From contig CAZBAJ010000005.1 in the NCBI GenBank assembly GCA_964490125.1, positions 4,631 to 68,630 of the forward strand: 64,000 nucleotides of DNA, in the 5' to 3' direction. The position numbers and the translations under genes were made by a program. The stretch's first letter is position 1. The number at the start of each line of letters is the position of its first letter. The notes beneath the pieces were generated by a model that saw only the letters and a program-made list of their open reading frames with translations, was not told the origin of the DNA and did not search any database. The stretch is from an uncultured Candidatus Saccharibacteria bacterium (GTDB lineage Bacteria > Patescibacteriota > WWE3 > UBA101185 > UBA10185). Below are positions 18,503 to 63,844 of this stretch, in pieces.

Positions 18503-18579
18503 GGCCTTCATGCCCCTCTCGTCGCGGGTCCCTGTCCGCCTTTGGCGGACGCCCGACTCCTCGAAAGTGCATGAAGCCC
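18503..18579 (+). repeat. GC-rich structured palindromic element, copy A
   Basis: Core ...tcatgcccctctcgtcgcgggtccctgtccgcctttggcggacgcccgactcctcgaa.... About 90% identical to the element at 63769-63844. Nested stems gtccgcc/ggcggac, cgtcg/cgac and an outer ccttcatgc/gcatgaagg. Confidence 0.55.
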
Positions 18580-18628
18580 TCCTTAGTCTCTATACTGGGG
18601 CGCAAAGCCCGATAAAGTCGACAAACTT

Positions 18629-19819
18629 ATGCTATTTACCATAGGTCGTCCGGTGTCAAAAAGGTTTGTGGAGATGCGCTTTACCAACCTTATCCCATAC
18701 GGACGCAACAAAATTTTAGTCCTCCTAAAAGACCTTGGTCTATTCTTTAGATGGCTGGGCGTGTATTTTGCGCTTAAAATCAAAAAATTCTTCCTTTTAG
18801 TGGGAAAAACCCTAGTTTTAGTCGTCCAAAAAGTCCAGGATCTTAAAAGTTATTTTGTGGCAAAACTTATTTGGTCACGGGGGAGGCTGGGCAGGCCGGT
18901 GGCAAATTTTATCGTCATGCTTTTGGCTTTAAGCGTATTCTTTTTTGGAGAAATTCTTAGCGGGTCAAAATTAGTGGTTAGCAAAGAGGTTGACCCAGAC
19001 TATTTAAAAACGGTTGTGGACATTATTCCGGAAAAAAACATTGCGCTAACCACTATTCCGGAAGAGCGCCAACGGACGCAGTATCTGGCTTACAAAATCG
19101 AGTCGGGCGACACTTTATTTGGCATTGGAAATAAATTTAAGGTTTCTGTTGACGCGTTAAAGTATGTAAATAATTTGTACGACGGATCGGTGCTAAAGGT
19201 TGGGAGTGAAATTGTGATTCCGCCTGCTTCTGGCTTGATTCATAAAGTAGAGGCGGGCGATACACTTGCGTCCATTGCTAAAAAATACTCCGTACCGTCA
19301 CAGGCTATTGCGGACTTTAACTACCTGTTAGAGCCTAATAAATTGGCTTTAGGGACAGAACTTGTTATTCCTGATGCTAAAATTCCTCAACCTGTAGTTT
19401 TGGGTTTGCCTGTTGGACTTGCCACTATTGCCCAAGGTGTTAACGACGCGAGTGCTAAAAAGGGTTGGTGTATGTGGCCTACATCGGTTAGCGTAATTAC
19501 CCAAAACTTTTCTTGGTATCATAATGGTTTGGATATTTCCGGAGGTGGAACGCCCCCAATTTATTCTTGCGCGGGCGGCGTGGTTGTTAGAGCGGGTTGG
19601 GATCCGTTTGGGCTTGGTTTGCATGTTAGAGTCGACCACGGTAACGGTTACGAAACAATCTACGGTCACATGAGTAGACTAGATGTAAGCTACGGCGACA
19701 AAGTCAAAAAGGGCGAAATTGTAGGGATTATGGGTAGTACAGGCAACTCTACAGGTCTGCATGTTCATTTTATGATAAAGTACAACGGGTCGCCACAAGA
19801 TCCTTTAAAGTATATTTAG
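18629..19819 (+). CDS. LysM-domain M23 family peptidoglycan metalloendopeptidase
   Basis: Two LysM repeats (YKIESGDTLFGIG..., HKVEAGDTLASIA...). C-terminal M23 motifs (HNGLDI, GSTGNSTGLHVHF). TM region near the N-terminus. Confidence 0.8.
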   Translation: MLFTIGRPVSKRFVEMRFTNLIPYGRNKILVLLKDLGLFFRWLGVYFALKIKKFFLLVGKTLVLVVQKVQDLKSYFVAKLIWSRGRLGRPVANFIVMLLALSVFFFGEILSGSKLVVSKEVDPDYLKTVVDIIPEKNIALTTIPEERQRTQYLAYKIESGDTLFGIGNKFKVSVDALKYVNNLYDGSVLKVGSEIVIPPASGLIHKVEAGDTLASIAKKYSVPSQAIADFNYLLEPNKLALGTELVIPDAKIPQPVVLGLPVGLATIAQGVNDASAKKGWCMWPTSVSVITQNFSWYHNGLDISGGGTPPIYSCAGGVVVRAGWDPFGLGLHVRVDHGNGYETIYGHMSRLDVSYGDKVKKGEIVGIMGSTGNSTGLHVHFMIKYNGSPQDPLKYI

Positions 19820-19839
19820 AGCGACGAATACAGCAAGAT

Positions 19840-21138
19840 ATGATAGACAATGTCAAAATTACAATTAAAGCGGGCGACGGAGGAGATGGAGCAGTTTCTT
19901 TTCACCGTGAAAAGTTTGTCACTCGTGGTGGACCGGATGGCGGCGATGGCGGTAGGGGAGGCTCCGTAATTTTTGTTGCGGACAACAACACTTCTACTTT
20001 GGACGACTTTAGGTCAAAAAAGGTTTTTAGCGCGCAAAATGGGGAAGCGGGTAAAAAGTTAAAAATGTACGGCAAAAACGCCGAGGATTTGTATATAAAG
20101 GTACCGGTTGGGACTTTGGTGTTCCAGGTTGACGACTTGGGAGACGATTCCGAACTTGCCAAAACAGATAAATTTACTAAAAAGCTAATAGACGGGGCTT
20201 CCTCACAGCGTCAATTAATTGCGGATTTAAACCAACTTGGCGACCGGTTTCTGGTGGCAAAGGGAGGTCGTGGGGGCAAGGGTAATTACAAATTTAAGTC
20301 GTCCACCAACCAAACGCCCACACAATACATTCCCGGCGAGGCAGGGGAGCAAAAAGAAATTATTTTGGAGCTAAAACTTATTGCCGATGTGGGACTTATT
20401 GGGCTTCCCAGCGCAGGTAAAAGCACGCTTATTAACGCACTGGCCCACACTAACGCTAAGGTAGCGTCGTACCACTTTACAACTTTGGAACCTAATTTGG
20501 GGGTTTGGCAGATTGACGCGGGTAGGCGGGTTGTGGTTGCCGATATTCCGGGGTTGATCGAGGGTGCGTCTTTAGGTAAGGGTTTGGGTGACGAGTTTTT
20601 GCGCCACATTGAACGCACTAAAGTTTTGGTGCATTTGGTGGATCCTTTGGCGGTAATGGAAGAGAAATCAATCGAAGCTCGAAATCGTTTGACTGCGGTG
20701 GACTCGCCAAGAGCTAACGAGCTTGAATCTAGTCAGCTAATAAATCCTGCCAAAGTGTTCCAAAACTACCAAGTCGTCCTAAAAGAGCTTAAAGACTACA
20801 AGGGCGGACTTTGGGATGTTAGCCAAAAGCCCCAGGTTGTGGTTATAAATAAAATTGACATTACAGAAGTTAAAGATGCGCTTACAGCTTTGGTTGACTA
20901 TTTTAGGCTCCAGGTAGTTGAGGTGCTACCAATCTCTGCGGCAACGGGGGAGGGTGTAGAGGCGTTGCGCAAAAAAGTGCTGGAAGTTTTGTCGTACACC
21001 AAAGAACCAGAGGTGGAAATTGAACCTCCTGTTAAAAAATACAATCTGTACAATTTGCCGGGTTTAAATCGTCGTCCTGTTTTAACTAAAGAGGTTAAAG
21101 GTTTGGTGGAAGCCCCTAAAAGGCGGGAGATTAGGTAG
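19840..21138 (+). CDS. obg: GTPase Obg/CgtA
   Basis: N-terminal Obg fold (IKAGDGGDGAVSFHREKFVTRGGPDGGDGGRGGSVIF). G domain (GLPSAGKSTL, DIPGLIEGA, NKID). C-terminal extension. Confidence 0.9.
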   Translation: MIDNVKITIKAGDGGDGAVSFHREKFVTRGGPDGGDGGRGGSVIFVADNNTSTLDDFRSKKVFSAQNGEAGKKLKMYGKNAEDLYIKVPVGTLVFQVDDLGDDSELAKTDKFTKKLIDGASSQRQLIADLNQLGDRFLVAKGGRGGKGNYKFKSSTNQTPTQYIPGEAGEQKEIILELKLIADVGLIGLPSAGKSTLINALAHTNAKVASYHFTTLEPNLGVWQIDAGRRVVVADIPGLIEGASLGKGLGDEFLRHIERTKVLVHLVDPLAVMEEKSIEARNRLTAVDSPRANELESSQLINPAKVFQNYQVVLKELKDYKGGLWDVSQKPQVVVINKIDITEVKDALTALVDYFRLQVVEVLPISAATGEGVEALRKKVLEVLSYTKEPEVEIEPPVKKYNLYNLPGLNRRPVLTKEVKGLVEAPKRREIR

Positions 21139-21174
21139 TCGCGGGGAATTGGTAACTTTGATTGACTACGGTTT

Positions 21175-21183
21175 TGCTATAAT
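21175..21183 (+). promoter_or_regulatory. extended -10 promoter element (TGcTATAAT) upstream of tRNA-Ala
   Basis: tgctataat lies 35 nt upstream of the tRNA 5' end. No well-spaced -35. Confidence 0.3.
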
Positions 21184-21218
21184 ACTTAAGCGAACAAGCA
21201 ACTTAAATGACAAAATAT

Positions 21219-21294
21219 GGGCCGTTAGCTTAGTTGGTAGAGCGCTTCCATGGCATGGAAGAGGTCAGCGGTTCGACTCCGCTACGGTCCACCA
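21219..21294 (+). tRNA. tRNA-Ala (anticodon GGC), CCA encoded
   Basis: Cloverleaf folded by hand. Acceptor gggccgt/acggtcc with the G3:U70 alanine identity pair. Anticodon loop atGGCat. T-loop ttcgact. Confidence 0.85.
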
Positions 21295-21334
21295 TTAAAG
21301 TCAACAAAAAGACAACAGCATCAGTAAAAATAAT

Positions 21335-22051
21335 ATGACAAATGAAGAAATTACTCTCCACGCCTTAGAGTTTGCCAAAAAGAATAAACTCCGCATAGCC
21401 AGAGAATTGACCGATCCAAGTAAATATAAGCCTACAGACCATCCCGTCTCTGTTTTTATGGCAGGTTCTCCTGGGGCGGGTAAGACGGAATTTTCTAAAA
21501 ATCTTGCTAAAGATTTACATAAAGGTGAAGGCATCAATGTTGTTCGGATTGACGGGGATGATTTAAGACCATATATGCCGGGTTATACAGGAAGTAACTC
21601 TCACCTATTCCAGGGTGCCGTTTCTTTAATTGTTGAGAAGATGCAAGATTTAGTATTACATACAGGGCAAAACTTTATTCTGGATGGAACTTTCTCTAGT
21701 TATCGTAAAGCTACCGAAAACATCAATCGCTCCTTGTCTAAGGGCAGGGTTGTTTCAGTTTTTTACTTGTATCAAAGACCTGAAATAGCTTGGAAGTTTA
21801 CCCAGGCGCGTGAAAAAGCAGAAGGTAGAAACATTCCCAAAACAGCCTTTATTAGTCAATTTTCTGAGGCTAGAGAAACAATTGAGAACCTAATTTTGAA
21901 TTATGGTGGTCTTATTAAGATAACTCTTGTGGCTAAAGACTTTGAGAATAAAACAATCGATCTTGTTGAAATTGCGGACAATGCGACAAAAATTGACGGT
22001 GTTACTTTTGCTCGTTATAATGAGCGAGAATTAGAAAGTTTATTAAAATGA
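21335..22051 (+). CDS. zeta-toxin-like P-loop kinase family protein
   Basis: Walker A (FMAGSPGAGKTEF) with the zeta/AAA_33-like layout. ATGA overlap with the next small ORF. Confidence 0.55.
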   Translation: MTNEEITLHALEFAKKNKLRIARELTDPSKYKPTDHPVSVFMAGSPGAGKTEFSKNLAKDLHKGEGINVVRIDGDDLRPYMPGYTGSNSHLFQGAVSLIVEKMQDLVLHTGQNFILDGTFSSYRKATENINRSLSKGRVVSVFYLYQRPEIAWKFTQAREKAEGRNIPKTAFISQFSEARETIENLILNYGGLIKITLVAKDFENKTIDLVEIADNATKIDGVTFARYNERELESLLK

Positions 22052-22215
22052 GACCCACAAAAAAGAATGAAAAATTAAGAAATGTAAACGGTTTCTCCGA
22101 CTTTTTTTACCATGCGACTCCAGAGGAGAGGCAAAAGGTTCTTAGAGAAGTGGTTAAAAAAGCCAATGATGACCAAGCTAAGTTATATTCTGAATACGGA
22201 AAGGCAGGAGTATGA
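22048..22215 (+). CDS. small hypothetical protein (55 aa), translationally coupled on both sides
   Basis: My manual translation gives MRPTKKNEKLRNVNGFSDFFYHATPEERQKVLREVVKKANDDQAKLYSEYGKAGV. ATGA overlaps at both ends (22048-22051 and 22212-22215). Below the track cutoff. Confidence 0.3.
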   Translation: MRPTKKNEKLRNVNGFSDFFYHATPEERQKVLREVVKKANDDQAKLYSEYGKAGV

Positions 22216-22589
22216 GGTTAAACGCTGTTGGAGTGTCGTCAAAAAATATCGGGGAGACAGTTAAATTCTATCAACTGTTGGGGTTTGAGTTTCAGCCATA
22301 CGGTAAAGAGGATAGGCATGTTGAGTCAATTAATAACCAGGGATCTAAACTTATGATCGACCATATTTCCATGGTCAAAGAAATAATCGGCGTCACACCC
22401 GCTCCTTCTAATCATTCAAACTTTGCCATTCAATATGACACACCGTCCGATCTAAATCTTGTGGTCAAGAGTTTAGAAACTGGAGGATACGGGATCGTGA
22501 AACCGGCTTGGGATGCTTTTTGGGGTCAGAGGTACGCGGTTGTTAAGGATCCGGATGGTTACATGGTGGATCTGTACTCTTATCTGTGA
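22212..22589 (+). CDS. VOC/glyoxalase-bleomycin resistance family protein
   Basis: 125 aa with the two-module beta-alpha-beta-beta-beta pattern (VGVSSKNIGETVKFY..., AVVKDPDGYMVDL). Confidence 0.7.
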   Translation: MRLNAVGVSSKNIGETVKFYQLLGFEFQPYGKEDRHVESINNQGSKLMIDHISMVKEIIGVTPAPSNHSNFAIQYDTPSDLNLVVKSLETGGYGIVKPAWDAFWGQRYAVVKDPDGYMVDLYSYL

Positions 22590-22622
22590 GTTGCCTCTTG
22601 TTAATTGGTTTCAATCTTTGCA

Positions 22623-23318
22623 TCATCTTGGAAATTTGCTGACATATTTTTCAATGCTTGCCGGAAGGTTTTGGATTGTTTCCGTTGTTACAAAAGGATC
22701 TATTCGGCTGTCGCCACGGTCTTGGAGTTCGTAATCGGGTACTAAATGTCCAAAAAGTTGTTGCGTCATAAGGTCTACAACCCGCTCTTTTTCCCAATGT
22801 GTAAGTCCAAACTGTCTGACGATATTTTCTTCAATCCCCATATGAACCATCTCATGAATGGGCGTGTGGGTTTGGCTGACGCGCTTAAAAGTTCCGTCCG
22901 CCCTTGTTAACATAACAACTACCCCAGTGTCCTCATAATAATTCCCACCTGGACCGTATTTAGTTAAGGCTAGTTGGTAGACGGGGAAGGTTTTAAATCC
23001 CCAAAGAGCGTTAAGTTTTTGAAAAGTTGGCAGTGTAGCTTCAAAAAGCGGGCGATGGCTTTCTAATATCTCTAGTCCTTTGGCAAAAAACGCCGGATCG
23101 TATTCAGTCGCCAAGAATTCTGCTAACTTACTCTCTCTCTCCTGCGTCCCAAAAGGAGTCCTTAAGTCGGGTACATCGGGCAAACCTAGCGTGTAGCCGT
23201 TTTCCTGATACCAAGGAAGTTGGTTTAGTACGGATTCCAGCCAGGCAAATTCTTCCTCCGGGGTTTGGGGGCGGATTTCTATTCTCATAACGGGTTGTAG
23301 TTCCTGTCTAGTCGCCAT
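22623..23318 (-). CDS. hypothetical protein with HExxH motif (possible Zn-dependent hydrolase)
   Basis: Start taken at ATG 23316-23318 (MATRQELQ...), immediately downstream of a TGcTATAAT extended -10 on the minus strand, so probably leaderless. Contains HEMVHMG. Confidence 0.45.
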   Translation of the reverse strand: MATRQELQPVMRIEIRPQTPEEEFAWLESVLNQLPWYQENGYTLGLPDVPDLRTPFGTQERESKLAEFLATEYDPAFFAKGLEILESHRPLFEATLPTFQKLNALWGFKTFPVYQLALTKYGPGGNYYEDTGVVVMLTRADGTFKRVSQTHTPIHEMVHMGIEENIVRQFGLTHWEKERVVDLMTQQLFGHLVPDYELQDRGDSRIDPFVTTETIQNLPASIEKYVSKFPR

Positions 23319-23351
23319 TTGCTTGATATTATAGCACCAATAACGCTCCGC

Positions 23352-23413
23352 TTGACAACATGGTAATTGCCAGTTATCATAAAACCATGGTTTATGGTAA
23401 TTACCAACTATCA
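23352..23413 (+). promoter_or_regulatory. promoter TTGACA-N17-TATCAT overlapped by two 20-bp direct repeats (putative operator)
   Basis: TTGACA at 23352-23357, TATCAT at 23375-23380. Repeats atggtaattgccagttatca (23360-23379) and atggtaattaccaactatca (23394-23413) with period 34. Sits in the divergent intergenic region. Confidence 0.4.
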
Positions 23414-23446
23414 CTCCACAATCCGTGGTGGGAGGAGGGCTATAAT

Positions 23447-24742: not shown

Positions 24743-25331
24743 TTAGCGTCCGTTCTCCAGTATTTATATCTATTGCGTAGGGATATATTTTTGGCTCTAT
24801 TTCTAAGTTAATTTCTTTAAGTTTTGGACCATCCTTGGATTCTTTTATATACTGTTCCATCATAAGTTCGGAGTCCCGTCTTGCTTGCTCTGATTTTCTT
24901 ATAGCATCTTCTGGTGCAATGTACATGGGTGTGGTGTATAGGTTAGGATAGTTTTGGTTAATCTTTTTGCTTTGAGACTCTGGTAAATTTCTGTATAGGA
25001 CAAGAATAGCGACTTCTGCTACGGTAATAAACAGGATAAGGAACACCGCAGTATAAGCAAGTATTTTCAGTCCCACCAGACCTCTACGGGTGACAAAGAA
25101 GTATAGAGGAACAAAAAACACCGCTAGAAAATAAATTAGAACAGTGGTTAACGCGGATACTGCCCACAAAGTGCTTGTAAACGCAAAATTTGTAGTGCTA
25201 CTACCTCTGTAAAACAGGCCGTTGTTTATGGGCATTACTCTTTGGAAAAAGACATAAAGTAAGAAAGATAAAGAGAAGACAAGAAGAGCTTGAGTTAGAC
25301 CTAGCAACCAATTGGGTACTATTTTATTCAT
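24732..25331 (-). CDS. hypothetical membrane protein
   Basis: Start at internal ATG (MNKIVPNWLLG...). 3-4 predicted TM helices. Acidic C-terminus. Confidence 0.45.
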   Translation of the reverse strand: MNKIVPNWLLGLTQALLVFSLSFLLYVFFQRVMPINNGLFYRGSSTTNFAFTSTLWAVSALTTVLIYFLAVFFVPLYFFVTRRGLVGLKILAYTAVFLILFITVAEVAILVLYRNLPESQSKKINQNYPNLYTTPMYIAPEDAIRKSEQARRDSELMMEQYIKESKDGPKLKEINLEIEPKIYPYAIDINTGERTLINP

Positions 25332-25421
25332 GGGGGAATTATACCATCGATTGGGTGACGGCGAAAAACCCCGTCGCACGACGGGGTTTTTAAAGCGTCT
25401 GTTGGATTAATTAATCCAAGC

Positions 25422-27701: not shown

Positions 27702-27759
27702 GAGGTAATTTTCCCGTTACGGGAGCAGACAATAAATCTTGTAATGACGGGATTAAGCG

Positions 27760-28449: not shown

Positions 28450-28468
28450 TTGTCGCCCGTATTATAAC

Positions 28469-28489: not shown

Positions 28490-28531
28490 AGACCGTCTTT
28501 ACAAAATATCTGGTCGACGCAAAATGGCACT

Positions 28532-29500: not shown

Positions 29501-31073
29501 GTCGGCATATTTTTTTGGAATTGACGCGTTTGATGTTGATGTGGAGGTAAATATTTTGGATAGAAGTATGCCGGGTTTTGAAGTGGTTGGATTGGCGGGT
29601 AGGGAAGTGGAGGAAAGCCGTGAGCGGGTAAAAAACGCGCTTCTTAATACTTTTAAGGAATTTCCTTACAATAAAAAGATTTTGGTTAACCTTGCTCCGG
29701 CGGATGTGCCTAAAGAAGGTTCGTATTACGATTTGCCCATTGCCGCCTGTTTGTTGAGCAGTATGCGGGACATTAATTTTCCCAGCGACTCCGCGTTTTT
29801 TGGCGAGCTTTCTTTGGATGGGAGTGTGCGCAAACTTAAGGGCGCGTACTTGTTTGTGTCGTTTGCAAAGGAGCGATGTTTAAAAAATGTGTTCATTCCA
29901 TTAGCTTGTTACCAAGAGGTCAAAAACATAACAGGGGTAAATATTTACCCAATTTCTACTCTTAACGATTTACTGGACTACGAGACCGCCCGACAAAAGT
30001 TTTTTGAGGCTCATGAGAACAAAAGAAATCAAGTCGGTTTGGAAAATCAACAGACAGTCATCCCTATTTATACAGAAATTTCTACCGGCGGTGTAACATT
30101 GTCAACCGACATAATTGACTTTAGTGATGTGGTAGGGCAGGATGCTGCAAAGCGGGCGTTAGAAATAAGCGCGTGCGGTGGCCACAATTTGTTAATGGAG
30201 GGTAGTCCCGGCAGCGGTAAAACCATGTTGGCAAAAGCGCTTTGCGGCATCCTGCCACAACTTAGTCAACAAGAAGAACACGAGGTTGCAAAAATCTACT
30301 CCGCCTGTGGATTATTTGAATCCAAAATTTTCTCCGGAAAATTCCGCCCGTTCAGAAGTCCACATCATACTATTACATATTCTGGCATGGTGGGTGGGGG
30401 AGCGGTGCCGAGACCTGGAGAAATAAGTTTGGCACACAAGGGTGTTCTGTTTTTAGATGAGCTGTCCGAATTTCAGTCCAACATTTTAGAATGTCTTCGT
30501 CAACCAATAGAAGAAGGTTTTATAACCATTGCTCGGAGCAAGGGGAGTGTGACCATGCCGTGCGATTTTACTCTAGTAGCTTGTACCAATCCTTGTCCGT
30601 GTGGTTATTATGGCGACGAAAAAACGCCCTGTACTTGCAAACCCTGGCAAATCTCTCTGTATTCCAAAAAACTATCCGGGCCAATTTTGGACCGAATTGA
30701 CATGCTTACCCGTGTTTCCAGTCCGCATGATGGTAAGTCAGTTAAAACTGCCCGCTTTTTACAAACCCAAACCAAGACCTCCCACATAATAAAAGAGCGG
30801 GTAGAAGAAGTTCGCCAAATTCAGCGCCAAAGATTTTTAGGTCAGACCACATTGCTAAATGCCCGCATGTCAAACAGTCAAGTCAAACAATACTGCGCGA
30901 TAAATTCAACTAGTCATGACTTATTAGACAACGCAATTGAGCGACTTCATTTATCGCCCAGGGGAGTTTTTAAAATTATTAAAGTTGCCAGAACTATTGC
31001 CGACATGGAGAAAAAGGCGCAGATAACGCCCGCGTGCCTTGCCGAGGCGATACAATACAAAACCATGGGCTAA
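29484..31073 (+). CDS. comM: YifB/ComM family Mg-chelatase-like AAA+ ATPase
   Basis: ATG at 29484 follows GGAGGTAGG. Lon-like N-terminal domain. Walker A (MEGSPGSGKTMLAKAL). Zinc-finger-like CPCGYYGDEKTPCTC. C-terminal ChlI-like domain. Confidence 0.85.
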   Translation: MLLKVKSAYFFGIDAFDVDVEVNILDRSMPGFEVVGLAGREVEESRERVKNALLNTFKEFPYNKKILVNLAPADVPKEGSYYDLPIAACLLSSMRDINFPSDSAFFGELSLDGSVRKLKGAYLFVSFAKERCLKNVFIPLACYQEVKNITGVNIYPISTLNDLLDYETARQKFFEAHENKRNQVGLENQQTVIPIYTEISTGGVTLSTDIIDFSDVVGQDAAKRALEISACGGHNLLMEGSPGSGKTMLAKALCGILPQLSQQEEHEVAKIYSACGLFESKIFSGKFRPFRSPHHTITYSGMVGGGAVPRPGEISLAHKGVLFLDELSEFQSNILECLRQPIEEGFITIARSKGSVTMPCDFTLVACTNPCPCGYYGDEKTPCTCKPWQISLYSKKLSGPILDRIDMLTRVSSPHDGKSVKTARFLQTQTKTSHIIKERVEEVRQIQRQRFLGQTTLLNARMSNSQVKQYCAINSTSHDLLDNAIERLHLSPRGVFKIIKVARTIADMEKKAQITPACLAEAIQYKTMG

Positions 31074-31166: not shown

Positions 31167-31173
31167 GTTTGTC

Positions 31174-35926: not shown

Positions 35927-37152
35927 CACGCATGCGTAGTAGCGGATTAGTTATTTTGATTTTCTTGGCGGTGTGGCGGGTGGGCGGGTATGTTTCTTGG
36001 AAACCGGCGGTTTTTGCGGAAAAGCTAAGTAACGAGAAGAATAAGAGTTATCAGGCGCCGGTTGACGAATGTGCTACGGGTGACGACACATTGAGTATAG
36101 GTTCTGTTAGAGATGTTGGCGGAATTGAACACAAGGTGGAAAACGACATGATTGCGAGGTTGGGCGGGCTGGGCAGGGGAATTTACTGTGGGTTTAAAAA
36201 GTGGTCGATGGAATTTAAGCAACAAGCATCATATAAAATTCAAGAAGTCCTGCCCAGCCCGCACAGTGAGTTGGTTATGGGCATGGTTTTAGGCGAGGAT
36301 CAGTTCAAACTCGTCCCCACATATAACGACATCTTGAAGAAAGTTGGATTGGTGCATGTGGTTGTGGTTTCCGGCTACAATATTAGTCTGGTATTTACTT
36401 TATTAATGCGGATTTTAGGTTCGCAATACAAGGTAAAAAATCTAGTCATTGGTTTATTTATTACGCTAGTTTATGCGGGTATTTCTGGTTTTGGTATTCC
36501 TGCAGTACGCGCTTGGATCATGGGATCTATTGCGGTTATCTTTAAGTTTTATGGTCGACCAGCGGAGGGTATAGAGGTTCTTATATTTTCAGCTATAGTC
36601 ATACTTATATTAGCACCAAGTCAGTTGTTTTCTGTGAGTTTTATGCTAAGTTTTTTGGCTACACTGGGCGTAATGGTTGTCCCGGAGGCATTAAAAGGTT
36701 TTGTAGGTAAGTTGGGGGTAAAGACCGTACCTACTTATTTGGAAGATTTTAATACTAGTTTAAGCGCCCAGTTAATGGTAAATCCCGTTTTGTCGTACTA
36801 TTTTGGCACTATCAGTTTAGTGTCATTAATAGCAAACCCTTTGGTTTTGTGGGTTGTACCCATCTGTACCGTTTTGGGAGGTTTGCTGGTGGCGGTAGCC
36901 TTTATCAGTCCCCTACTTTCTCAAATTTTGGCATTTATGATGTTTCCTTTTTTGGACTTTTTTGTCAGCTTTTCCGAATTTTTTGCTAAATTTGCTACCG
37001 CTTCTGTTAGTTTGCGGTTTAGTGTTTACGCCGTGTTTGTCTATTACCTTGGACTGTTTATTGCTATAAGGCATTTTACTGTTAAAAACGCTAGGACAGT
37101 TAAACCGATTCTGCCGACTACTCGTGTGATTAGTAAAGGTAGTAGGGCATGA
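35923..37152 (+). CDS. comEC: ComEC/Rec2 DNA-uptake channel, membrane (competence) domain
   Basis: DUF4131-like N-terminus and a polytopic Competence domain (VHVVVVSGYNISLVFTLL...). ATGA overlaps at both ends. Confidence 0.8.
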   Translation: MTRMRSSGLVILIFLAVWRVGGYVSWKPAVFAEKLSNEKNKSYQAPVDECATGDDTLSIGSVRDVGGIEHKVENDMIARLGGLGRGIYCGFKKWSMEFKQQASYKIQEVLPSPHSELVMGMVLGEDQFKLVPTYNDILKKVGLVHVVVVSGYNISLVFTLLMRILGSQYKVKNLVIGLFITLVYAGISGFGIPAVRAWIMGSIAVIFKFYGRPAEGIEVLIFSAIVILILAPSQLFSVSFMLSFLATLGVMVVPEALKGFVGKLGVKTVPTYLEDFNTSLSAQLMVNPVLSYYFGTISLVSLIANPLVLWVVPICTVLGGLLVAVAFISPLLSQILAFMMFPFLDFFVSFSEFFAKFATASVSLRFSVYAVFVYYLGLFIAIRHFTVKNARTVKPILPTTRVISKGSRA

Positions 37153-42056: not shown

Positions 42057-42431
42057 ATGAAATCCGTCAGGGAACATAAAAGAAACACGGTGGAAGTACT
42101 GACAGAGATGGATCAAGGGCAGGTATTAAACATCAGTCAAGCCCGTCCTATGTTGAGTTCTATTATTTCCAATGTTTCCAATCGGGCGTACCTTGTGGGC
42201 AAAAGGGGAGTACCGAGCATAATTATTATGGACTACTCCCTTGCTAAAAGGTTTGTGCCGGAAAGTTTTATCCAACAGGGCTTTTCCCTTAAACCCGCTG
42301 TAAAAGCTGGCAAAAGATTCGTCAACTTTGTTGAAGATCTACATACTAGGGGAGTTTTAACTACGGGCAAGCATTTAAGAAAAAACATCAGTTTAGCCCA
42401 AAATGTCGACAGGATTGTATATGGCATCTAG
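42057..42431 (+). CDS. Phd/YefM-family antitoxin
   Basis: LNISQARPMLSSIISNVSNRAYLVGKRGVPSIIIMDY matches the Phd/YefM fold. Start chosen at an internal ATG. The stop overlaps the downstream vapC start by 11 nt. Confidence 0.55.
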   Translation: MKSVREHKRNTVEVLTEMDQGQVLNISQARPMLSSIISNVSNRAYLVGKRGVPSIIIMDYSLAKRFVPESFIQQGFSLKPAVKAGKRFVNFVEDLHTRGVLTTGKHLRKNISLAQNVDRIVYGI

Positions 42432-42849
42432 CGGTTTGCTCTTAGATTCCAGTTTTCTCGTCGCCCTTTTTAACAAAGAATATTCTTTACACGAGGATGC
42501 TTTGAAGGCAAGTCATAAATTTTTGACAGAGAGTGACAAGTTATTCATCACAAACCTTATTTTTGTCGAATTTGCTACTGTACTTTCGATGCGGTTGGGT
42601 AAGAGTGGCTTAGAGGAGGCTTTGGGTCAGGATCTTTTATTAAAAGGTGGGTTAGTGGAGCTGTTTGTTAATCAGGAGCTTTACGACGAAGTCAAAAAGA
42701 CTTATTTAAAGGATGTTTTGCATAAGGATATAAGTTTTGTCGACTTAAGTACAGCCCTAGTGGCTAAGAAAATGTCGCTAGATGTAGTGTCGTTTGACAA
42801 GCATTTTAAGGCTTTAGGCAAAAGATACGGATTTAAAGTTTTTCCATAA
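42421..42849 (+). CDS. vapC: PIN-domain toxin VapC
   Basis: LLDSSFLVALF N-terminal motif, conserved acidic residues, SFVD. Confidence 0.7.
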   Translation: MASSGLLLDSSFLVALFNKEYSLHEDALKASHKFLTESDKLFITNLIFVEFATVLSMRLGKSGLEEALGQDLLLKGGLVELFVNQELYDEVKKTYLKDVLHKDISFVDLSTALVAKKMSLDVVSFDKHFKALGKRYGFKVFP

Positions 42850-44546: not shown

Positions 44547-44621
44547 TGGTACTCCCGGCGGGAATTGAACCCGCACCTTTGGCTTCGGAAGCCAAAATTC
44601 TATCCGTTGAACTACGGGAGC
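44547..44621 (-). tRNA. tRNA-Arg (anticodon CCG), CCA encoded
   Basis: The minus-strand cloverleaf has acceptor gctcccg/cgggagt with G1:U72. Anticodon loop ttCCGaa. T-arm gcggg-ttcaatt-cccgc. Discriminator A. Confidence 0.8.
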
Positions 44622-44660
44622 TTGCTTCCGCCCATTATACCATCCGCAAAGTATAGCAAT

Positions 44661-44689
44661 TTGACATTTAGTATTACCAAATGTAGTAT
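44661..44689 (+). promoter_or_regulatory. promoter TTGACA-N17-TAGTAT directing a leaderless antitoxin mRNA
   Basis: TTGACA at 44661-44666 and TAGTAT at 44684-44689. The ATG at 44700 lies about 10 nt downstream. The promoter overlaps the tRNA-Arg gene on the opposite strand. Confidence 0.4.
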
Positions 44690-44699
44690 GGTAATACTT

Positions 44700-44957
44700 A
44701 TGGATCAATTACTCTCGACTATAACAGCAAAGGGGCAAATAACCATTCCTAAAATATTTAGGGATTCTCTGGCTCTTTCGGAGTCGGACAAGGTGGTTTT
44801 TACCCAACTTGATGAAAAAACACTGGCGGTTAAATCTGCCAGCAGGGATTTTATGGTTCATAGCGGTTCCGTAAAAGCAAAAAAGCCGTTAGAAAGTTCT
44901 AATAAAGTCCAACAAAAAGTTTATAGAAAAATGGCGCGGGAATGGACTACTTTTTAG
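44700..44957 (+). CDS. AbrB/MazE (SpoVT-AbrB) family antitoxin
   Basis: MDQLLSTITAKGQITIPKIFRDSLALSESDKVVF swapped-hairpin motif. The track ORF N-terminus overlaps the tRNA and is not coding. Confidence 0.6.
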   Translation: MDQLLSTITAKGQITIPKIFRDSLALSESDKVVFTQLDEKTLAVKSASRDFMVHSGSVKAKKPLESSNKVQQKVYRKMAREWTTF

Positions 44958-45346
44958 ACACCAACATTTTCCTTAGGTTTTTTGTGGACGAGCCAAAAGC
45001 CCAGCATCAAAAGTGTCAACAACTATTTGAAAAGATTTCTAAAGGCGAGATAACTGCTGTTACTAGTCCGCTAGCCATTTTTGAAGTTATCTGGACGCTC
45101 CAAAGCTACTACGAACTGCCAAAACAAGACATTATCGACAAAGTCTTTGATGTCATTGTTTGTCCATATATTTTAATTGACGGAAAAGAACTACTGCTGA
45201 CCAGTTTGCTGATGTGGCAAGTGAAAAACATTAAGTTTAACGATATTTATCTATACAACTATCTAAAAGCCAAGGGTTTAGGTAAAATATACTCTTACGA
45301 CAAGGATTTTAATAAATTTGCCGACATTTTAAGGCTGGAACCTTAG
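44942..45346 (+). CDS. vapC: PIN-domain toxin VapC
   Basis: FLDTNIFL motif, SYDKDF. Overlaps the antitoxin stop. Confidence 0.75.
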   Translation: MDYFLDTNIFLRFFVDEPKAQHQKCQQLFEKISKGEITAVTSPLAIFEVIWTLQSYYELPKQDIIDKVFDVIVCPYILIDGKELLLTSLLMWQVKNIKFNDIYLYNYLKAKGLGKIYSYDKDFNKFADILRLEP

Positions 45347-47309: not shown

Positions 47310-47549
47310 ATGTCCAACTACACAACAGTAACATTAAGAAAAGAGACTTATAATAAACTTTCCGATTTTACCAGGGAGGTTAGAGCAACAAATTCCGAGG
47401 CTGTAGACAGGTTACTGACTTTTTATTGGAAAGACAGAAAGGAGAAGTCTGACAAAGCCTTGGAGAAGTTTAGAGAAGGCATAAGGGGTTTAGGGATTAA
47501 AAAAAAGCTCAAGAGTTCCGAACTAAATGTTATTAATGCGTATTTATGA
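47310..47549 (+). CDS. ribbon-helix-helix-type antitoxin (VapB-like)
   Basis: MSNYTTVTLRKETYNKLSDF has an N-terminal beta-strand plus helices typical of RHH/CopG. ATGA overlap with the downstream PIN gene. Confidence 0.5.
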   Translation: MSNYTTVTLRKETYNKLSDFTREVRATNSEAVDRLLTFYWKDRKEKSDKALEKFREGIRGLGIKKKLKSSELNVINAYL

Positions 47550-48001
47550 TTTACCTTTTAGATACAAGTGTGTTGGTGAATCTTGTTTTTGCTGACATTA
47601 TAGCCTTAACCGAAGAAGAAAAAGAATCAGTTAGGTTTGCTAATTCACTAGAACCTAGAGAGAGGTGGGTAGCCGATTTCGTTTTGACGGAATTTGCTTT
47701 AGTAGCTCAAAAAGTTTTGCCGTCAAAATTTTTGCTAACCAAAGATCCCGTTGTTTTAAACACATACCTAAGTAGGGAGCTGGAATTTTTTGACGAGTTT
47801 TCTACGATTTTTACTTCTTATGTCCCGGATCATCTGGAGGTCGAGGTTGCTTTGAAAGATTATGTAGAGTACTGGAAGAAGAACAAGTCCAATAGAGCGC
47901 TGTCATTTGTCGACTTGTTTTTACTTTCACTTGCTAAAAAACACGGCGTCGGTTTGCTTACCGTAGACAGAAAGATGTCGACTTATATAAAGCCAAATTA
48001 A
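47546..48001 (+). CDS. vapC: PIN-domain toxin VapC
   Basis: LLDTSVLV, SFVDLF, TVDRK motifs. Confidence 0.7.
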   Translation: MIYLLDTSVLVNLVFADIIALTEEEKESVRFANSLEPRERWVADFVLTEFALVAQKVLPSKFLLTKDPVVLNTYLSRELEFFDEFSTIFTSYVPDHLEVEVALKDYVEYWKKNKSNRALSFVDLFLLSLAKKHGVGLLTVDRKMSTYIKPN

Positions 48002-54361: not shown

Positions 54362-54367
54362 CAACTT

Positions 54368-54396: not shown

Positions 54397-54532
54397 ACCT
54401 AGTACATTGCACAGTCTTGTCCGGGGTGGTGGTATTCTCATTTTGTGGGCAGGAAAGTGAGGAGAGCCACTTCGGACTAGGTTGTGCAATTTTTTTGCTT
54501 GCGGTTTTAAAAGTTGCAGATATAATAGTTCC

Positions 54533-57332: not shown

Positions 57333-57334
57333 TT

Positions 57335-58792: not shown

Positions 58793-59738
58793 CCCTCTAA
58801 CCGGTGAACCAACAATATTGGCGACCAATAGAGCAAAGCGACACGATCAGACGGGCGTTGTGAATGCTAACGCTGTAGGTATGGTAAAAGCCGACGATGG
58901 AAAAGTTGACAACCTACTTAAAGAAGAACAAGCGCCACCTTGTTTCTTTTGCAAAGGTAGCGAGTCTATTACACCGCCAACCTTGTATCAGGATGAGGAT
59001 GATTGGAATGTTAGGGTTTTTGCCAATAAATTTCCCTTGGTACCGGATCACGAGATTATTGTCCATTCGCCGGATCATCACAAAGACATGGAGGATTTTA
59101 ATCACGACCAAAATGTCAGAATAATTAGGGCCTATTTAAACAGAGTGTCGTATTATGGCACACAGGACAAAGAGGTTATCATCTTCAATAACAAAGGTGG
59201 GCGGGCGGGAGCTTCCATCGTCCACCCGCACTCTCAAATTATTGCCACTAAGGGTTTTCCGGGCATTATAGAAAAGGAAAAAGCAGAAGCTCTGCATTAT
59301 AGTAATGAGAAAAACTCCTGTTATTGGTGTGACGAGTGGCAGGAGGCGGTAGCGGGAAAAACTCGTGTTGTTCATGAGTCGTCACACTTTGTTGTATTTT
59401 GTCCTAAAGCTAGCAGGTGGAGCTACGAAATGGTTTTGGTGCCAAAAAACCACAAACCTAACTTTGGATTTATCGACGAGATGGAAATTAACGATTTAGC
59501 AAAAGTATTGCCGGGAGCTTTACTGGCCTACAAAAACTGCTTTAACAACCCGGACCGCAATTTTTGGATTCACACGGTTAGATACGAGCCTTATCATTGG
59601 CATATTGGCTTTTTGCCGCATATAAAGGTTTTTGGGGCATTGGAGATGGGCGCTGGAATTTGGGTAAGTGATAAAGCAACGCCGGAGGACGCAGGTCATG
59701 AACTAAAGGCGCATTTTCCGATAAACTTGTTTGCATAG
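58773..59738 (+). CDS. GalT-family (galactose-1-phosphate uridylyltransferase / ADP-glucose phosphorylase-like) HIT-superfamily protein
   Basis: ATG at 58773 overlapping the glgA2 stop by 20 nt. Cys/His zinc motif (FCKGSE...HSPDHH). Active-site HPHSQ. Confidence 0.6.
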   Translation: MGLFIFDPLTGEPTILATNRAKRHDQTGVVNANAVGMVKADDGKVDNLLKEEQAPPCFFCKGSESITPPTLYQDEDDWNVRVFANKFPLVPDHEIIVHSPDHHKDMEDFNHDQNVRIIRAYLNRVSYYGTQDKEVIIFNNKGGRAGASIVHPHSQIIATKGFPGIIEKEKAEALHYSNEKNSCYWCDEWQEAVAGKTRVVHESSHFVVFCPKASRWSYEMVLVPKNHKPNFGFIDEMEINDLAKVLPGALLAYKNCFNNPDRNFWIHTVRYEPYHWHIGFLPHIKVFGALEMGAGIWVSDKATPEDAGHELKAHFPINLFA

Positions 59739-59898
59739 GTCTACCTAGCCGTTTTTTTATCTAAAATAAAGGAAAAAGCGATGCCAAGGTTTTTTAGCTT
59801 GACAAGTCGCACTATTTTTGTAACAATGCACAAGTTGCCAAAGATAGCAAGTGTCCAGCACTTAATTTTCCTACAGGGAACAGCTTGCCGAGGTTACT

Positions 59899-60384
59899 AT
59901 GCCGAATACAATTAAAATACAAAAAGTTAAAGACATCTCCCAAAAAGTCCAAAAAGCTTCTTCTTTGACCTTTTTTGAGTATACAAAACTAGGTGCTAAC
60001 GCGCTAAACGACTTAAGAAACAAAGCTAAAGAGGTGGAGGCGGAAGTTTTAGTGGCAAAAAATACTTTGGTAAAAATTGCGCTGGGCGACAAAAAGTCGC
60101 AGGAGGGCGACCTTCAAGGTCAAACTGGATTGTTACTGGCTTTTGCCGACAGTTTAAGTCCCCTAAAAGTCCTATACGATTTTTCTAAAAAATTTGAGAG
60201 TCTAAAAATTAAGGGTGCTTTTGTGGACGGAAGTTACTACGAATCGACAAAAGTACTTGAATTAGGTCAATTGCCCACAAAGAACGACTTACTAGTTAGG
60301 GTTTTACGGGGATTTAATAACCCTGTAGCCAAATTTGTTTATGTATTGTCTGCTGTAGCTGACAAAAAGGGGGTGCAAGAGTAA
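59899..60384 (+). CDS. rplJ: 50S ribosomal protein L10
   Basis: MPNTIKIQKVKDISQKVQKASSLTFFEYTKLGANALNDLR matches the typical L10 N-terminus. TTGACA at 59799-59804 upstream. Confidence 0.9.
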   Translation: MPNTIKIQKVKDISQKVQKASSLTFFEYTKLGANALNDLRNKAKEVEAEVLVAKNTLVKIALGDKKSQEGDLQGQTGLLLAFADSLSPLKVLYDFSKKFESLKIKGAFVDGSYYESTKVLELGQLPTKNDLLVRVLRGFNNPVAKFVYVLSAVADKKGVQE

Positions 60385-60768
60385 ATGGAATTATCTGCAA
60401 ATGCACAAAAAGTCATGGAAATGGTTGAAAAAATGACTGTTCTGGAGTTAAACGACCTGGTCAAGGCTTTGGAAGAAAAATTTGGAGTTTCTGCTAGCGC
60501 CCCGGTTAGTGTTGGCGGTGCTGGTGCCGGAGCGTCTGCTCCAGCCGAGGAAAAAACCGAATTTGATGTAGTTCTTGCCGAAGCCGGAGGTAATAAAATA
60601 GCCGTTATTAAGGCGGTAAGGGAATTAAATCAAGCTTTAGGTTTGGTGGAGGCTAAAACATTGGTAGAAAGCGCACCAAAAGTGTTGCTTGAGGGCGCTA
60701 AAAAAGAAGCCGCGGAAGAAGCTAAAAAGAAACTAGAAGTTGCCGGGGCTAAGGTGGAGTTAAAGTAA
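60385..60768 (+). CDS. rplL: 50S ribosomal protein L7/L12
   Basis: N-terminal dimerisation helix. Ala/Gly hinge. C-terminal domain [43 protein letters not shown]. Confidence 0.9.
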
Positions 60769-60854
60769 GGTTGTTGCAGAAGTAGCTTAGAACCGAAGCA
60801 GAGACTTTTGCTACTTGATGCTAGAGTTGGGTTGTTTTTCGATTGACCGACCTA

Positions 60855-60880
60855 CCGCGAGTTAACACCTCGCGGTTTTT
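60855..60880 (+). terminator. Rho-independent terminator after rplL
   Basis: ccgcgag-ttaacac-ctcgcgg followed by ttttt. Confidence 0.75.
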
Positions 60881-61069
60881 GGTTCTATAGCGATCCTTTG
60901 GGGTGAGCATCTGGGACTAATATTTATACTTCCCGAGGGTTATTCTGTAGCGTATTGCAATTGAATTGCATTTGCAATCTATCTGCAATACACTGAAATT
61001 CGTTGGTATGGGGAATACATCAAGAGCCGTAGGCAAAATGGATAGGTAAAAAGAATAGAAATCTAGTTT

Positions 61070-61834
61070 ATGGAGATACTAAAAAGCATCGGAAATTATA
61101 AATATCGATATCTGAAGCTGGGAACCGGTCATAAAAAACTGTTGGTACTTTGGGGATTTGCCAGTTTTAAAGAAAACGCGACTAAGCTGGTCGACCAGAA
61201 TTTCTCCAATTACACCACACTTATACCCGAGTACCCTTATCACAATAATTTTGACGACTCGGGTATGGAGGACATTTCGATAGAGGCGCTTTCTGATTAT
61301 CTAAAGGATCTATTGCGACACGAGGATTTTACCGACTTTGATGTACTAGGCTTTTCTTTGGGAGGACTCATGGCGTTGGAAATTGCTAAAAACTGCAGGG
61401 GTTTTAGAATCGGTAAAGCCATAATTTGGGCATCACCGGTCCTTGGTTTGAAAGGTGTGACCGATTTACCGAGTCAACTGGCAAGTATTTATACAAGGTC
61501 GCCAAAAGATAGGCTCCAAGCCGTCCACATAAATAAACTGTTTCAAAAAGCTTTACTAACACGGGGGATAAAAGTATTTGATCCGGATCAGGTTAAAAAG
61601 TATTTGATCGCTTTTCAGTCGTACAGATTAGCTACTTTGGAAGAAAACCTAAATTATCTATTTATTTACGACCCTTTGGACGCATTGGTGTCGATAAAAA
61701 ATGCCCAGTACATAAAGAAATTAGCTGACCATGGTAATGTAGAGCTTGTAGAAATACGGGGCGGGGGACATTTTGGCACAAAAACCGGGTGGGCAAAAGC
61801 GTTAGCTAAAATAAAGGACTTTCTAGACAAGTAG
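61070..61834 (+). CDS. alpha/beta-hydrolase fold protein
   Basis: Nucleophile elbow GFSLGG. C-terminal His region (GGGHFG). Confidence 0.7.
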   Translation: MEILKSIGNYKYRYLKLGTGHKKLLVLWGFASFKENATKLVDQNFSNYTTLIPEYPYHNNFDDSGMEDISIEALSDYLKDLLRHEDFTDFDVLGFSLGGLMALEIAKNCRGFRIGKAIIWASPVLGLKGVTDLPSQLASIYTRSPKDRLQAVHINKLFQKALLTRGIKVFDPDQVKKYLIAFQSYRLATLEENLNYLFIYDPLDALVSIKNAQYIKKLADHGNVELVEIRGGGHFGTKTGWAKALAKIKDFLDK

Positions 61835-61904
61835 GATCAAGACCAGAGTTCACAAATCAAAGTTATCAGGTTAAACAGTCAAGTATACGAGTTGTTATTT
61901 AATA

Positions 61905-62025
61905 AATCCCGGGATGCCGACCGCCGAACCAGACTCCCGCGTAGGAAGATGTGATCTCGGATCCGCCAGAGGCGGATACTCCCGATCTCCTGAAAATATA
62001 ACGTCGAGAGAATACTTCAGGATCG
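61905..62025. ncRNA. GC-rich structured segment between convergent genes (candidate small RNA or bidirectional terminator)
   Basis: Local GC far above background. Hairpin gatctcggatccgcc-aga-ggcggatactcccgatc (61953-61987) is immediately followed by tcctgaa...ttcagga (61988-62022). The overlapping track ORFs are Arg-rich and implausible as proteins. Confidence 0.3.
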
Positions 62026-62132
62026 GTTTAAACGAGCACCCTAGGAAATTTTCAAAGCACATATATTTAACTGGTTTCCGTGTCAAAAGTCAAGCCCAAA
62101 AATGTCAACCAAAGATTAATAAAGCGTATTGG

Positions 62133-62783
62133 TTAAAGCTGTAGCAGGTTGACAAAAAAGCTGACGATGGGGGAGACGATTTTGGAAATACTGCCCGTGG
62201 CTACCATAAAAATTAAGATAAATATGCCGTAGGGGGCAAGTTGTACCCACTGCACGGAGAGTTGCGGTGGTAAAAGACCGTTGACGATTTTAAAGCCATC
62301 TAAAGGCTCTATTGGAAGCAAGTTAAAGATGCCCAAAACGATGTTATACAAAATGACTGGATACAAAAATGTGGTCAGAATAAGAATAGGGGACACCAAG
62401 CCAGAATTTGTATTTGCGCCAAAAATTGACTCAATAATCTTTACTACCATCGTCAGTAAAGTCGCCATTAAAAAATTGCTACCGGGACCGGCAAAGGAAA
62501 TTATGGCAGCGTCCCGTTTTGGATTTTTTAGGTTGTAATAATTTATGGGAACTGCTTTTCCCCAACCAAATCCCGCTATTAAAAGTGTAAGCGTGCCTAA
62601 TGGATCTAGGTGCGCTAAAGGATTTAAGCTTACCCGACCAAGATCTTTAGCTGTGGAGTCGCCCAGTTTGTTAGCCACAAAGGCATGGGAAAACTCATGA
62701 ATAGTAATAGAAAACAGCAAAGCCACGGCAATAACAGCAAAAAGTAGGGGATTTTCAAATAGCGTTCCCAAAAGTCCAGTCAT
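62133..62783 (-). CDS. site-2 protease family (M50) membrane metalloprotease
   Basis: HEFSHAFVANKLGD (HExxH in a TM helix) plus a downstream LDG motif. Confidence 0.75.
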   Translation of the reverse strand: MTGLLGTLFENPLLFAVIAVALLFSITIHEFSHAFVANKLGDSTAKDLGRVSLNPLAHLDPLGTLTLLIAGFGWGKAVPINYYNLKNPKRDAAIISFAGPGSNFLMATLLTMVVKIIESIFGANTNSGLVSPILILTTFLYPVILYNIVLGIFNLLPIEPLDGFKIVNGLLPPQLSVQWVQLAPYGIFILIFMVATGSISKIVSPIVSFFVNLLQL

Positions 62784-62821
62784 TTACACATTGTACACTA
62801 GATGGTAGAATTCAAAAACCT

Positions 62822-63016
62822 ATGAATGGCGTTATAAATTATTTGACGGCGGTGCGGGGAGAGTTTAAAAATGTAACTTGGCCTACCAGGCAGGAGGCGG
62901 TTCGCTTGACTCTTTTTGTGGTAGGTGGTAGTTTGCTAGTTGGACTTTTTGTTGGCGGGACTGACGCCGTCTTGCTAAAAGGTTTAGAGGCTTGGATAAA
63001 ACTATGGACGATTTAA
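62822..63016 (+). CDS. secE: preprotein translocase subunit SecE
   Basis: 64 aa. VRGEFKNVTWPTRQEAVRLTLFVVGGSLLVGLFVG matches the SecE signature and single TM. Lies upstream of nusG. Confidence 0.8.
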   Translation: MNGVINYLTAVRGEFKNVTWPTRQEAVRLTLFVVGGSLLVGLFVGGTDAVLLKGLEAWIKLWTI

Positions 63017-63762
63017 CAAAAGATACAACAACCGATGTAAAAGATGTTGCGGATACGGCTGTGATTACGGATGCGACTACGGTAGCGGAGGATGTAGAAA
63101 CGACTAAAGAGGTAGATGATGTAGAGGTTGAGGAGTCGGATACGGAAAAGAGTGCTGTTGATAAGCCGTCGGATGGAACATCGGAGCAGGTATCCGACAA
63201 GAATTTGAACATAGTTACAATATCCGACATGCCGTCCGAAGGAGCCAAGTGGTATGTTGTCCACACCTATTCTGGTCATGAAAATAAGGTGGCAGTAACT
63301 TTAAAACAGCGCGCGGTGTCTACGGGGTATTTGGATAGGGTTTTTAAAGTCCTTATTCCTACACAAAAAAAGATTATGGTGAGTGAGGGCAAAAAGCGGG
63401 AGGTGGACGAGCATATTTTGCCGGGTTATGTAGTGGTTCTTATGAAACTTTCTGACGAAGTATGGCATTTGGTAAGGTCGACTCGGGGGGTTACGGGGTT
63501 TGTGGGGATTGGTAGTACACCAACGCCTCTACCGGAGTCAGAAGTTAGAACTTTAATGAAGTTTATGCAGATGGAAGCGCCCAAGTTTGAGGCTAGGTAT
63601 TCGGTTGGGGATGCGGTTAAAATTGTGGACGGGCCCTGGAAAGACTTTATGGGTAAGGTGGATGAAGTTAACGAAGAGCAGGGGAGGGTTAAGGTTTTGG
63701 TTTCTGTTTTTGAACGGGAAACTCCTATGGAGTTGGAGTTTTCCCAAGTTACTGCTATCTAG
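62992..63762 (+). CDS. nusG: transcription antitermination factor NusG with acidic N-terminal extension
   Basis: NGN domain ([21 protein letters not shown]). KOW ([35 protein letters not shown]). About 75 aa of D/E/T-rich N-terminal extension. Confidence 0.85.
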
Positions 63763-63768
63763 TTGCTT

Positions 63769-63844
63769 GGTTTTCATGCCCTTTTCGTCGCGGGTCCCGG
63801 TCCGCCTGTGGCGGACGCCCGACTCCTCAAATGGCAAGAAAACC
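63769..63844 (+). repeat. GC-rich structured palindromic element, copy B (in the rplK leader)
   Basis: About 90% identical to 18503-18579. Differences fall in loops or are compensatory in the outer stem (ggttttcatgcc/ggcaagaaaacc here, ccttcatgc/gcatgaagg in copy A). Confidence 0.55.

Follow-up and report, generated by a model that had tools for sequence, protein, structure and literature searches.

The 64,000-nucleotide stretch analysed here (hereafter the window) is taken from contig CAZBAJ010000005.1 of assembly GCA_964490125.1, and it carries two long GC-rich palindromes, copy A behind rho and copy B between nusG and rplK. Such sequences in the spacers of core operons raise the question of whether they serve the neighbouring genes as regulatory signals or belong to a mobile repeat. 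Judged by the genes of the window, the source organism is a WWE3-like (Katanobacteria) bacterium of the candidate phyla radiation (CPR); its NusG shares 84% identity with a named WWE3 protein, and its large membrane protein is 45–47% identical to named WWE3 proteins. Our analysis indicates, with a probability of about 0.65, that the palindromes are copies of a GC-rich, imperfectly palindromic, non-autonomous repeat of 76–90 bp that is restricted to a narrow WWE3-like CPR lineage.

Copies A, B and C and their shared hairpin

Copy A (18503–18579, + strand, 77 nt) lies between rho (17108–18457) and a LysM/M23 peptidase gene (18629–19819), and copy B (63769–63844, + strand, 76 nt) lies between nusG, which ends at 63762, and rplK, whose ATG is at 63888. 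Both were found where the original prediction had placed them, in sense orientation between co-directional genes. They are also, as had been noticed, GC islands in an AT-rich genome, with 62–68% GC against 42% for the window. A covariance model (R1) was built from A, B, the reverse complement of 7534–7610 and two copies, L003 and L004, from the Saccharibacteria-labelled metagenome-assembled genome (MAG) CAZTSS01. The proposal to extend the long copies into such a model proved fruitful. Exactly three full-length matches to R1 were found in the 64-kb window, in both orientations: A (90.7 bits, E 2e-22), B (83.2 bits, E 2e-20), and a third one, copy C, at 7534–7611 on the − strand (78 nt; 74.1 bits, E 7e-18), inside the open reading frame (ORF) 6250–10020 (+). 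The segment 7564–7578, previously listed as a short relative within a coding sequence, is actually the apex of this full-length copy, read in the opposite orientation.

The core of A (18520–18562, +) is an exact match to the search pattern, and the core of B (63786–63828, +) has the same anatomy. In A, the helix CGGGT (18525–18529)/GCCCG (18551–18555) carries the 5′ bulge CCCT (18530–18533) and encloses the hairpin GTCCGCC (18534–18540)-TTT-GGCGGAC (18544–18550); a bulged A at 18556 and a CTCCTC tail follow. The two 43-nt cores differ at two unpaired positions, the bulge base 63799 and the loop base 63808, both of which are G in B and T in A. The 43-nt core pattern matched twice in the window, with 0.00 matches expected. 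Over their whole length A and B are 82% identical (63/77), and both 5′ arms carry TTCATGCC, so that the earlier description of their outer stems as completely different was overstated. Two pairs are altered on both sides (C-G to U-A), and the remaining differences exchange a pair for a mismatch or a mismatch for a pair. Because only two pairs change on both sides, A and B by themselves say little about covariation. Sequence homology between them stops at the borders of the element.

Folding of A and B as RNA, on either strand, gave z scores of −4.1 to −6.6 against shuffled sequences, and folding as DNA gave −3.8 to −4.4. The structure proposed for them therefore exceeds shuffled controls on both strands and in both chemistries. 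Folding energy was also considered as an indicator of the functional strand and was rejected. In every case the strand complementary to the model orientation gave the better fold, since it has G.U where the other has C.A; this preference follows the orientation of the element and not that of transcription.

All copies adopt a single long bulged hairpin, whether folded as RNA or as single-stranded DNA. From the outside inwards, this consists of a variable outer helix, a shared TGCC(C)/GGCA, a covarying 4-bp helix (GGCG/CGCC, GGGU/ACCC or CGAG/CUCG), a bulged A, the helix CGGG/CCCG, a pyrimidine bulge of 4–5 nt and the hairpin GUCCGCC-N3-GGCGGAC. In alignment A6, which comprises eight distinct copies from five genomes and, being fitted to the model, somewhat favours structure, 85% of the cells were paired as against 68% in shuffles, and 20 of the 31 pairs showed changes on both sides. 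These statistics were matched by none of 500 shuffles, and slid controls gave 36–46%. The covariation that had been claimed from A and B thus holds for the family, but on those two copies alone it was weakly founded. Copy C adds two compensatory pair changes in the apex (G-C to U-A and U-A to C-G). The pairing termini differ from copy to copy (GGCCTTCA, GGTTTTCA, GGAGGTCT, GGCAGTTAGCG and GAGGGCAAGCTCTG), and only the inner TGCC(C)/GGCA is common to them. The tetranucleotide CGTC stands within the 5′ internal loop in A and in B, and on the 3′ side in copy C and in the copy of locus L032; L003, L004, L030 and L031 lack it. These results show that the apex is near-invariant and that the outer helix varies freely provided that pairing is kept.

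Occupied and empty sites in relatives

Orthologous regions of relatives were retrieved through proteins homologous to the membrane protein or to NusG. The NusG-based relatives are L034–L037 (NusG 85–91% identical), and the loci of the membrane-protein orthologues P0002, P0003, P0004 and P0005 are L030, L031, L033 and L032, respectively. The gap between nusG and rplK is 12, 9, 1 and 5 nt in L034–L037 as compared with 125 nt in the window, and the gap between rho and the peptidase gene is 50 nt in L030 and 29 nt in L032 as compared with 171 nt. When 65 kb of syntenic DNA, drawn from four relatives, was scanned with R1, no copy of the family appeared. Since the orthologous spacers are empty, A and B are lineage-specific insertions, and this removes both the idea of an rplK leader and that of a signal associated with Rho or NusG. 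The comparison shows that copies entered the rho–peptidase and nusG–rplK spacers, and in-frame loops of membrane proteins, after the split from close relatives.

The peptide that copy C contributes, in frame, to the 1256-aa product of ORF 6250–10020 is GWSAHPTNGLPAVGGIGTRLAGGRPP, and it lies in a loop flanked by hydrophobic segments. Among seven orthologues of this membrane protein (about 66–72% identity), P0001, P0002 and P0003 carry the intragenic copy, which in P0002 and P0003 has the position and the orientation of copy C. In P0005, where the DNA was read, the element is inverted, with the left junction shared and the same outer arms (GGAGGTCTGCCC...). The P0006 copy also appears to be inverted, as suggested by an inserted peptide like that of P0005 in the protein alignment. 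The element is absent from P0004, from P0007 and from all of the WWE3 homologues of about 45% identity. Because the L032 copy, read in the element orientation, is closer to copy C (73% identity) than to A (65%), one ancestral copy that flipped in place, or was excised and re-inserted, would be a more economical explanation than two unrelated insertions.

Of the four copies that lie within genes, three measure 78 nt and the one in L031 measures 90 nt, all of them multiples of three; intergenic copies measure 76–77 nt. In the L031 copy (3811–3900, −), the apex is swapped for a longer segment, a TCCGCC-ACA-GGCGGA hairpin with extra flanking bases. It looks as if this apex had been remodelled or carried a nested insertion, and in the outer stem of the same copy U-A replaces C-G as a compensatory change. 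In every copy, four or five of the six frames are free of stops, and the L003 copy is read through in another frame within a different membrane-protein ORF. A query with the concatenated six-frame peptides, aimed at further in-frame copies, gave no match. The 31-aa loop as a query returned one long protein, which is probably an orthologue, and one weak repeat protein, and nothing else.

Between the window and L030, identity at third codon positions is 92% inside the element and 54% elsewhere in the gene, a value reached by none of 1035 windows of 26 codons. Frozen third positions mean that the nucleotides themselves are constrained or have recently been homogenised. At five positions of the L030 copy the mRNA strand has G.U where its complement has C.A, which, in this small sample, is a hint of constraint at the RNA level.

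The public genomes were searched with an exact and deliberately narrow pattern, taking one genome per species, and the family was found in MAG CAZTSS01 alone. Its two copies occupy unrelated sites, L003 in frame in another membrane-protein ORF and L004 in an intergenic region. One of the copies of the family sits next to ymdB. In addition, a Logan contig with an identical rho ends inside copy A (L028, 4420–4449), and the 5′ half of that copy is a variant (CCGCCTGCGGTCCCGG...). The break together with the variant half implies that elsewhere this genome has one or more additional copies of slightly different sequence, and such a break is the behaviour of an assembly at a multi-copy repeat. The L028 variant would escape the exact pattern, which is therefore too narrow for some copies.

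The same scan brought up two other repeats that carry the identical apex module. One, 'family 2', is a multi-copy repeat of about 95 nt in MAG BS750m-G18 (JACKQG01), represented by L002, L007, L008, L013, L014, L019, L021–L024, L026 and L027. Its third hairpin is CCGGGU-N3-GUCCGCC-N3-GGCGGAC-GCCCGG, and its outer stem UUGUCAUUC/GAAUGACAA encloses two further hairpins, which gives it the look of a four-way junction. The copy in L019 (about 5230–5260, −) has an extra TCCGCC-AGCT-GGCGGA hairpin within the first hairpin. The host is probably not a CPR bacterium, because type-IX-secretion sorting domains are encoded. A recurrent gene beside this repeat was sought and rejected, the sole common feature of the neighbours being that sorting domain. 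The other, a third family of about 110 nt, is also multi-copy (L005, L010, L012, L015 and L018, in MAG binchicken_co247_8, CAZVBB01). Its module, GGGGUGACA-GUCCGCC-UCA-GGCGGAC-GCCC, is flanked by two other conserved hairpins, and in L005 it stands 50 nt upstream of a tRNA gene. The apex modules of these two families and of our element may be related or convergent.

Weighing the explanations

We favour the non-autonomous repeat because its insertions are recent, its sites are unrelated, it occurs in both orientations, it is tolerated in coding loops, it breaks the assembly of a near-identical strain and it has no coding capacity. A mobile palindrome resembling a repetitive extragenic palindrome (REP) or a transposable element of the miniature inverted-repeat type (MITE) was among the candidates of the original prediction. 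It is borne out by the empty orthologous spacers, by the in-frame copy that is present, absent or inverted, and by the copies in CAZTSS01. Given an invariant centre and ends that need only pair, the bulged apex would be the determinant recognised in trans, probably in the form of a folded single strand, by the agent that copies or moves the element. By analogy with REPs and their associated tyrosine transposases (RAYTs) and with IS200/IS605, this agent would most likely be a structure-specific enzyme acting on folded single strands. The outer helix would matter only by extruding and presenting the apex, and the GC richness, by leaving most frames free of stops, would let 78-nt insertions survive in genes as surface loops.

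Several observations weigh against a mobile repeat. The intergenic insertions add 115–140 nt, which exceeds the 77-nt palindrome, so the mobile unit is not precisely delimited. No target-site duplication is consistent across copies; short direct repeats (AAAGTCG at A and ATCTAG at B) stand at differing distances from the element. The ends vary from copy to copy, in contrast to those of a classical MITE, and the window ORFs that were scanned with Pfam include no transposase or RAYT-like gene. In public data the family is very rare, with two MAG matches in the genome collections and a low known copy number. The exact pattern returned only the unrelated 'family 2' from the metagenome collection of the Joint Genome Institute (JGI), and neither viral contigs searched with two patterns nor phage and plasmid collections searched with blastn gave any match. 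Finally, the frozen synonymous sites of copy C are explained equally well by a selected function and by selfish maintenance.

This last point leads to the main rival, in which the element is a functional cis-acting RNA hairpin in mRNAs, active in stability, processing or protein binding and possibly exapted from a mobile element, whose structure is kept by selection on the RNA. The strong covariation of the family and the sense orientation of A and B between co-directional genes agree with it, and the frozen synonymous sites together with the G.U pattern in L030 are why we still grant it a real, though minority, chance. However, the element stands in both orientations in one gene across species, so the transcribed strand differs between them, and its two strands are not equivalent. 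Close relatives manage without it at orthologous sites, its position relative to gene starts and ends is not fixed, and mutation bias could account for the five transitions in one copy. On balance we consider an RNA function unlikely. Much less can be said for regulation of the neighbouring genes, either with copy B as an autoregulatory leader of rplK in the L11/L1 operon or with the copies as termination or antitermination signals of rho and nusG. Only position speaks for it, B being directly upstream of rplK and A directly downstream of rho, whereas four relatives have no element in their short nusG–rplK gaps, two have none after rho, and other copies sit in membrane-protein genes and beside ymdB. 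Nor did the elements show any match to an Rfam leader model or other Rfam family at the gathering score or at E values up to 10. Zero terminator-like sites were found within 18300–18800 and 63600–64000, the tails after the hairpins (CCCTCCTTAG and CCTCGCACAT) have no U-run, and no promoter-like site coincides with A or B. The comparison with relatives refutes this explanation, which we regard as very improbable. The probability of a chance resemblance, or of a local segmental duplication carrying its flanks, is close to nil. Nothing recommends it beyond the two copies originally noticed, as against 0.00 expected core matches, homology that stops at the borders and eight distinct copies in five genomes.

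Rfam also returned nothing at the related loci, and ARAGORN found no tRNA or transfer-messenger RNA at the elements or at those loci. A hammerhead or hepatitis delta virus-like ribozyme was considered by eye and rejected, as A and B do not have the GAAA in common and the order of the helices is wrong.

A bolder extension of the mobile-repeat reading is that GGGU-bulge-GUCCGCC-N3-GGCGGAC-GCCC could be the handle of an undescribed hairpin-specific system of mobilisation or maintenance. The same module is the core of the two differently built, multi-copy repeat families in two unrelated MAGs. In the WWE3-like lineage, a flip of the element in place within a gene would exchange one surface-loop peptide for another, unrelated one. 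We hold this to be improbable and put it forward as speculation.

CPR genomes are tiny and streamlined and are usually called repeat-poor. If the element is a mobile repeat, as we favour, its recent invasion of spacers in core operons (rho and nusG–rplK) and its in-frame survival within genes for membrane proteins would mean that selfish or structure-driven DNA shapes such genomes too. In practical terms, the element breaks assemblies and can be mistaken for a regulatory leader, and its conserved bulged apex offers a bait for finding the enzyme that recognises it.

Similar sites, other window features and known systems

A site at 61953–61987 had also been taken for a shorter relative. It does have CCCGA.CTCCT in common with the family, but R1 matches there nothing more than the 7-bp hairpin (13 bits, E 0.4). 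The doubtful segment, 61962–61991 (+), reads TCCGCC-AGA-GGCGGA followed by CCCGATCTCCT, and it lies within a non-coding block of about 150 nt (61905–62055) that is 76–88% conserved in L034–L037, beside the 3′ end of an M50 peptidase gene. It is probably not a mobile copy, and we treated it as a different element. The block itself (+) has a closing stem and shows, relative to L035, two compensatory changes in the GGAUCCGCC...GGCGGAUAC hairpin; it had no Rfam match and is a candidate small RNA of the lineage, outside Rfam. A possible fragment of the element at 16105–16119 (+) consists of CGCGGGTCC followed by GCTTTG. This 9-mer occurs three times in the window, with 0.21 expected; the site has no R1 match, and its flank is not conserved in L030 and L032.

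Close to the latter site, at 16135–16205 (+), a hairpin of 70 nt whose stem has 22 bp (z −6.2) lies between a DUF11/CLIPPER gene and a sortase gene. In L030 and L032 it is about 95% conserved, one pair differing by a compensatory change and another by a wobble, in a spacer that is otherwise not conserved; it is a candidate cis-regulatory or small RNA. Another long GC-rich hairpin (6181–6258, +; −48 kcal/mol, z −7.0) ends where ORF 6250 starts; its resemblance to the family model is weak and confined to the outer arms, the interior being unrelated. Two ORFs, 27–1112 and 5119–6168 (+), encode proteins of 361 and 349 aa with Thr/Pro-rich linkers and N-terminal hydrophobic segments that by eye resemble secretion signals. 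They had no Pfam match, their 60-nt windows reach 63–75% GC, and they may be foreign or unusually biased DNA. Two inverted repeats lie within ORFs. The one at 36161–36265 (+), in a ComEC-like ORF, has 17-nt arms that are 94% complementary and could be an intragenic palindromic insertion of a different family; the one at 30136–30256 (+), in a ComM/Mg-chelatase-like ORF, has 19-nt arms that are 95% complementary. Genes of toxin-antitoxin type are unusually dense for 64 kb (10210–10641, 21335–22051, 42403–42849, 44565–45346 and 47546–48001), with four PIN-domain proteins, a zeta toxin and a MazE-like antitoxin.

With regard to known systems, an Rfam, phage or plasmid identity was sought for the element family, and there was no match in any of them. 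The U-run that follows the GC hairpin of an intrinsic terminator is missing at A and B. Compared with L1/L11 leaders, the element is not conserved upstream of rplK in L034–L037 and matches no curated model. In integron attC sites, the structure of the hairpin is conserved over the sequence of its stem, and extrahelical bases mark the strand. Their outer R″/R′ boxes are conserved and their centre is variable, and they flank cassettes beside an integrase. Our element is likewise a hairpin of recombination type that keeps structure more than sequence in parts of its stem, but it has the reverse pattern, with a conserved centre and variable ends, and no integrase-type setting is present.

MITE families are defined by shared terminal inverted repeats and target-site duplications. 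The element is small (76–90 bp), non-coding, multi-copy, and present or absent at orthologous sites, as MITEs are, but it falls outside their formal definition because its termini differ between copies; consistent target-site duplications were likewise not seen. Bacterial MITEs such as Correia, ERIC and BOX are small non-coding multi-copy sequences that can form a long hairpin and give rise to in-frame fusions (PMC10969869). REPs are GC-rich imperfect hairpins of 20–40 bp with an unpaired GTAG or CGTC tag by the stem; they are mostly extragenic between co-directional genes, with some inside genes, and are plausibly recognised as folded single strands (PMC3733652). The unit conserved here is, like theirs, a GC-rich imperfect hairpin with a bulge, it too lies mostly outside genes that run in one direction, and its recognition as a folded single strand is equally plausible. 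However, it measures 76–90 bp and its GTAG/CGTC tag is not conserved, which places it outside the definition of tagged REPs; the hairpin is not made of two inverted REP units as in a REPIN, and the Pfam-scanned ORFs of the window include no RAYT.

Compared by description, the closest in behaviour are the Rickettsia palindromic elements (RPEs), which are short and palindromic, have no transposase of their own, and occur both in intergenic regions and, unusually often, in frame in unrelated genes, to whose products they add a peptide loop (PMC10969869). Here, similarly, two independent in-frame sites are found in membrane proteins, in different frames, while A, B and L004 are intergenic. The element differs from RPEs in the phylum of its host, a WWE3-like CPR bacterium and not Rickettsia, in its length of 76–90 bp as against about 150 bp, in its much lower known copy number, and in having a conserved centre with variable ends. 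It would thus represent a second, phylogenetically remote case of the selfish DNA in coding sequences that is known from Rickettsia.

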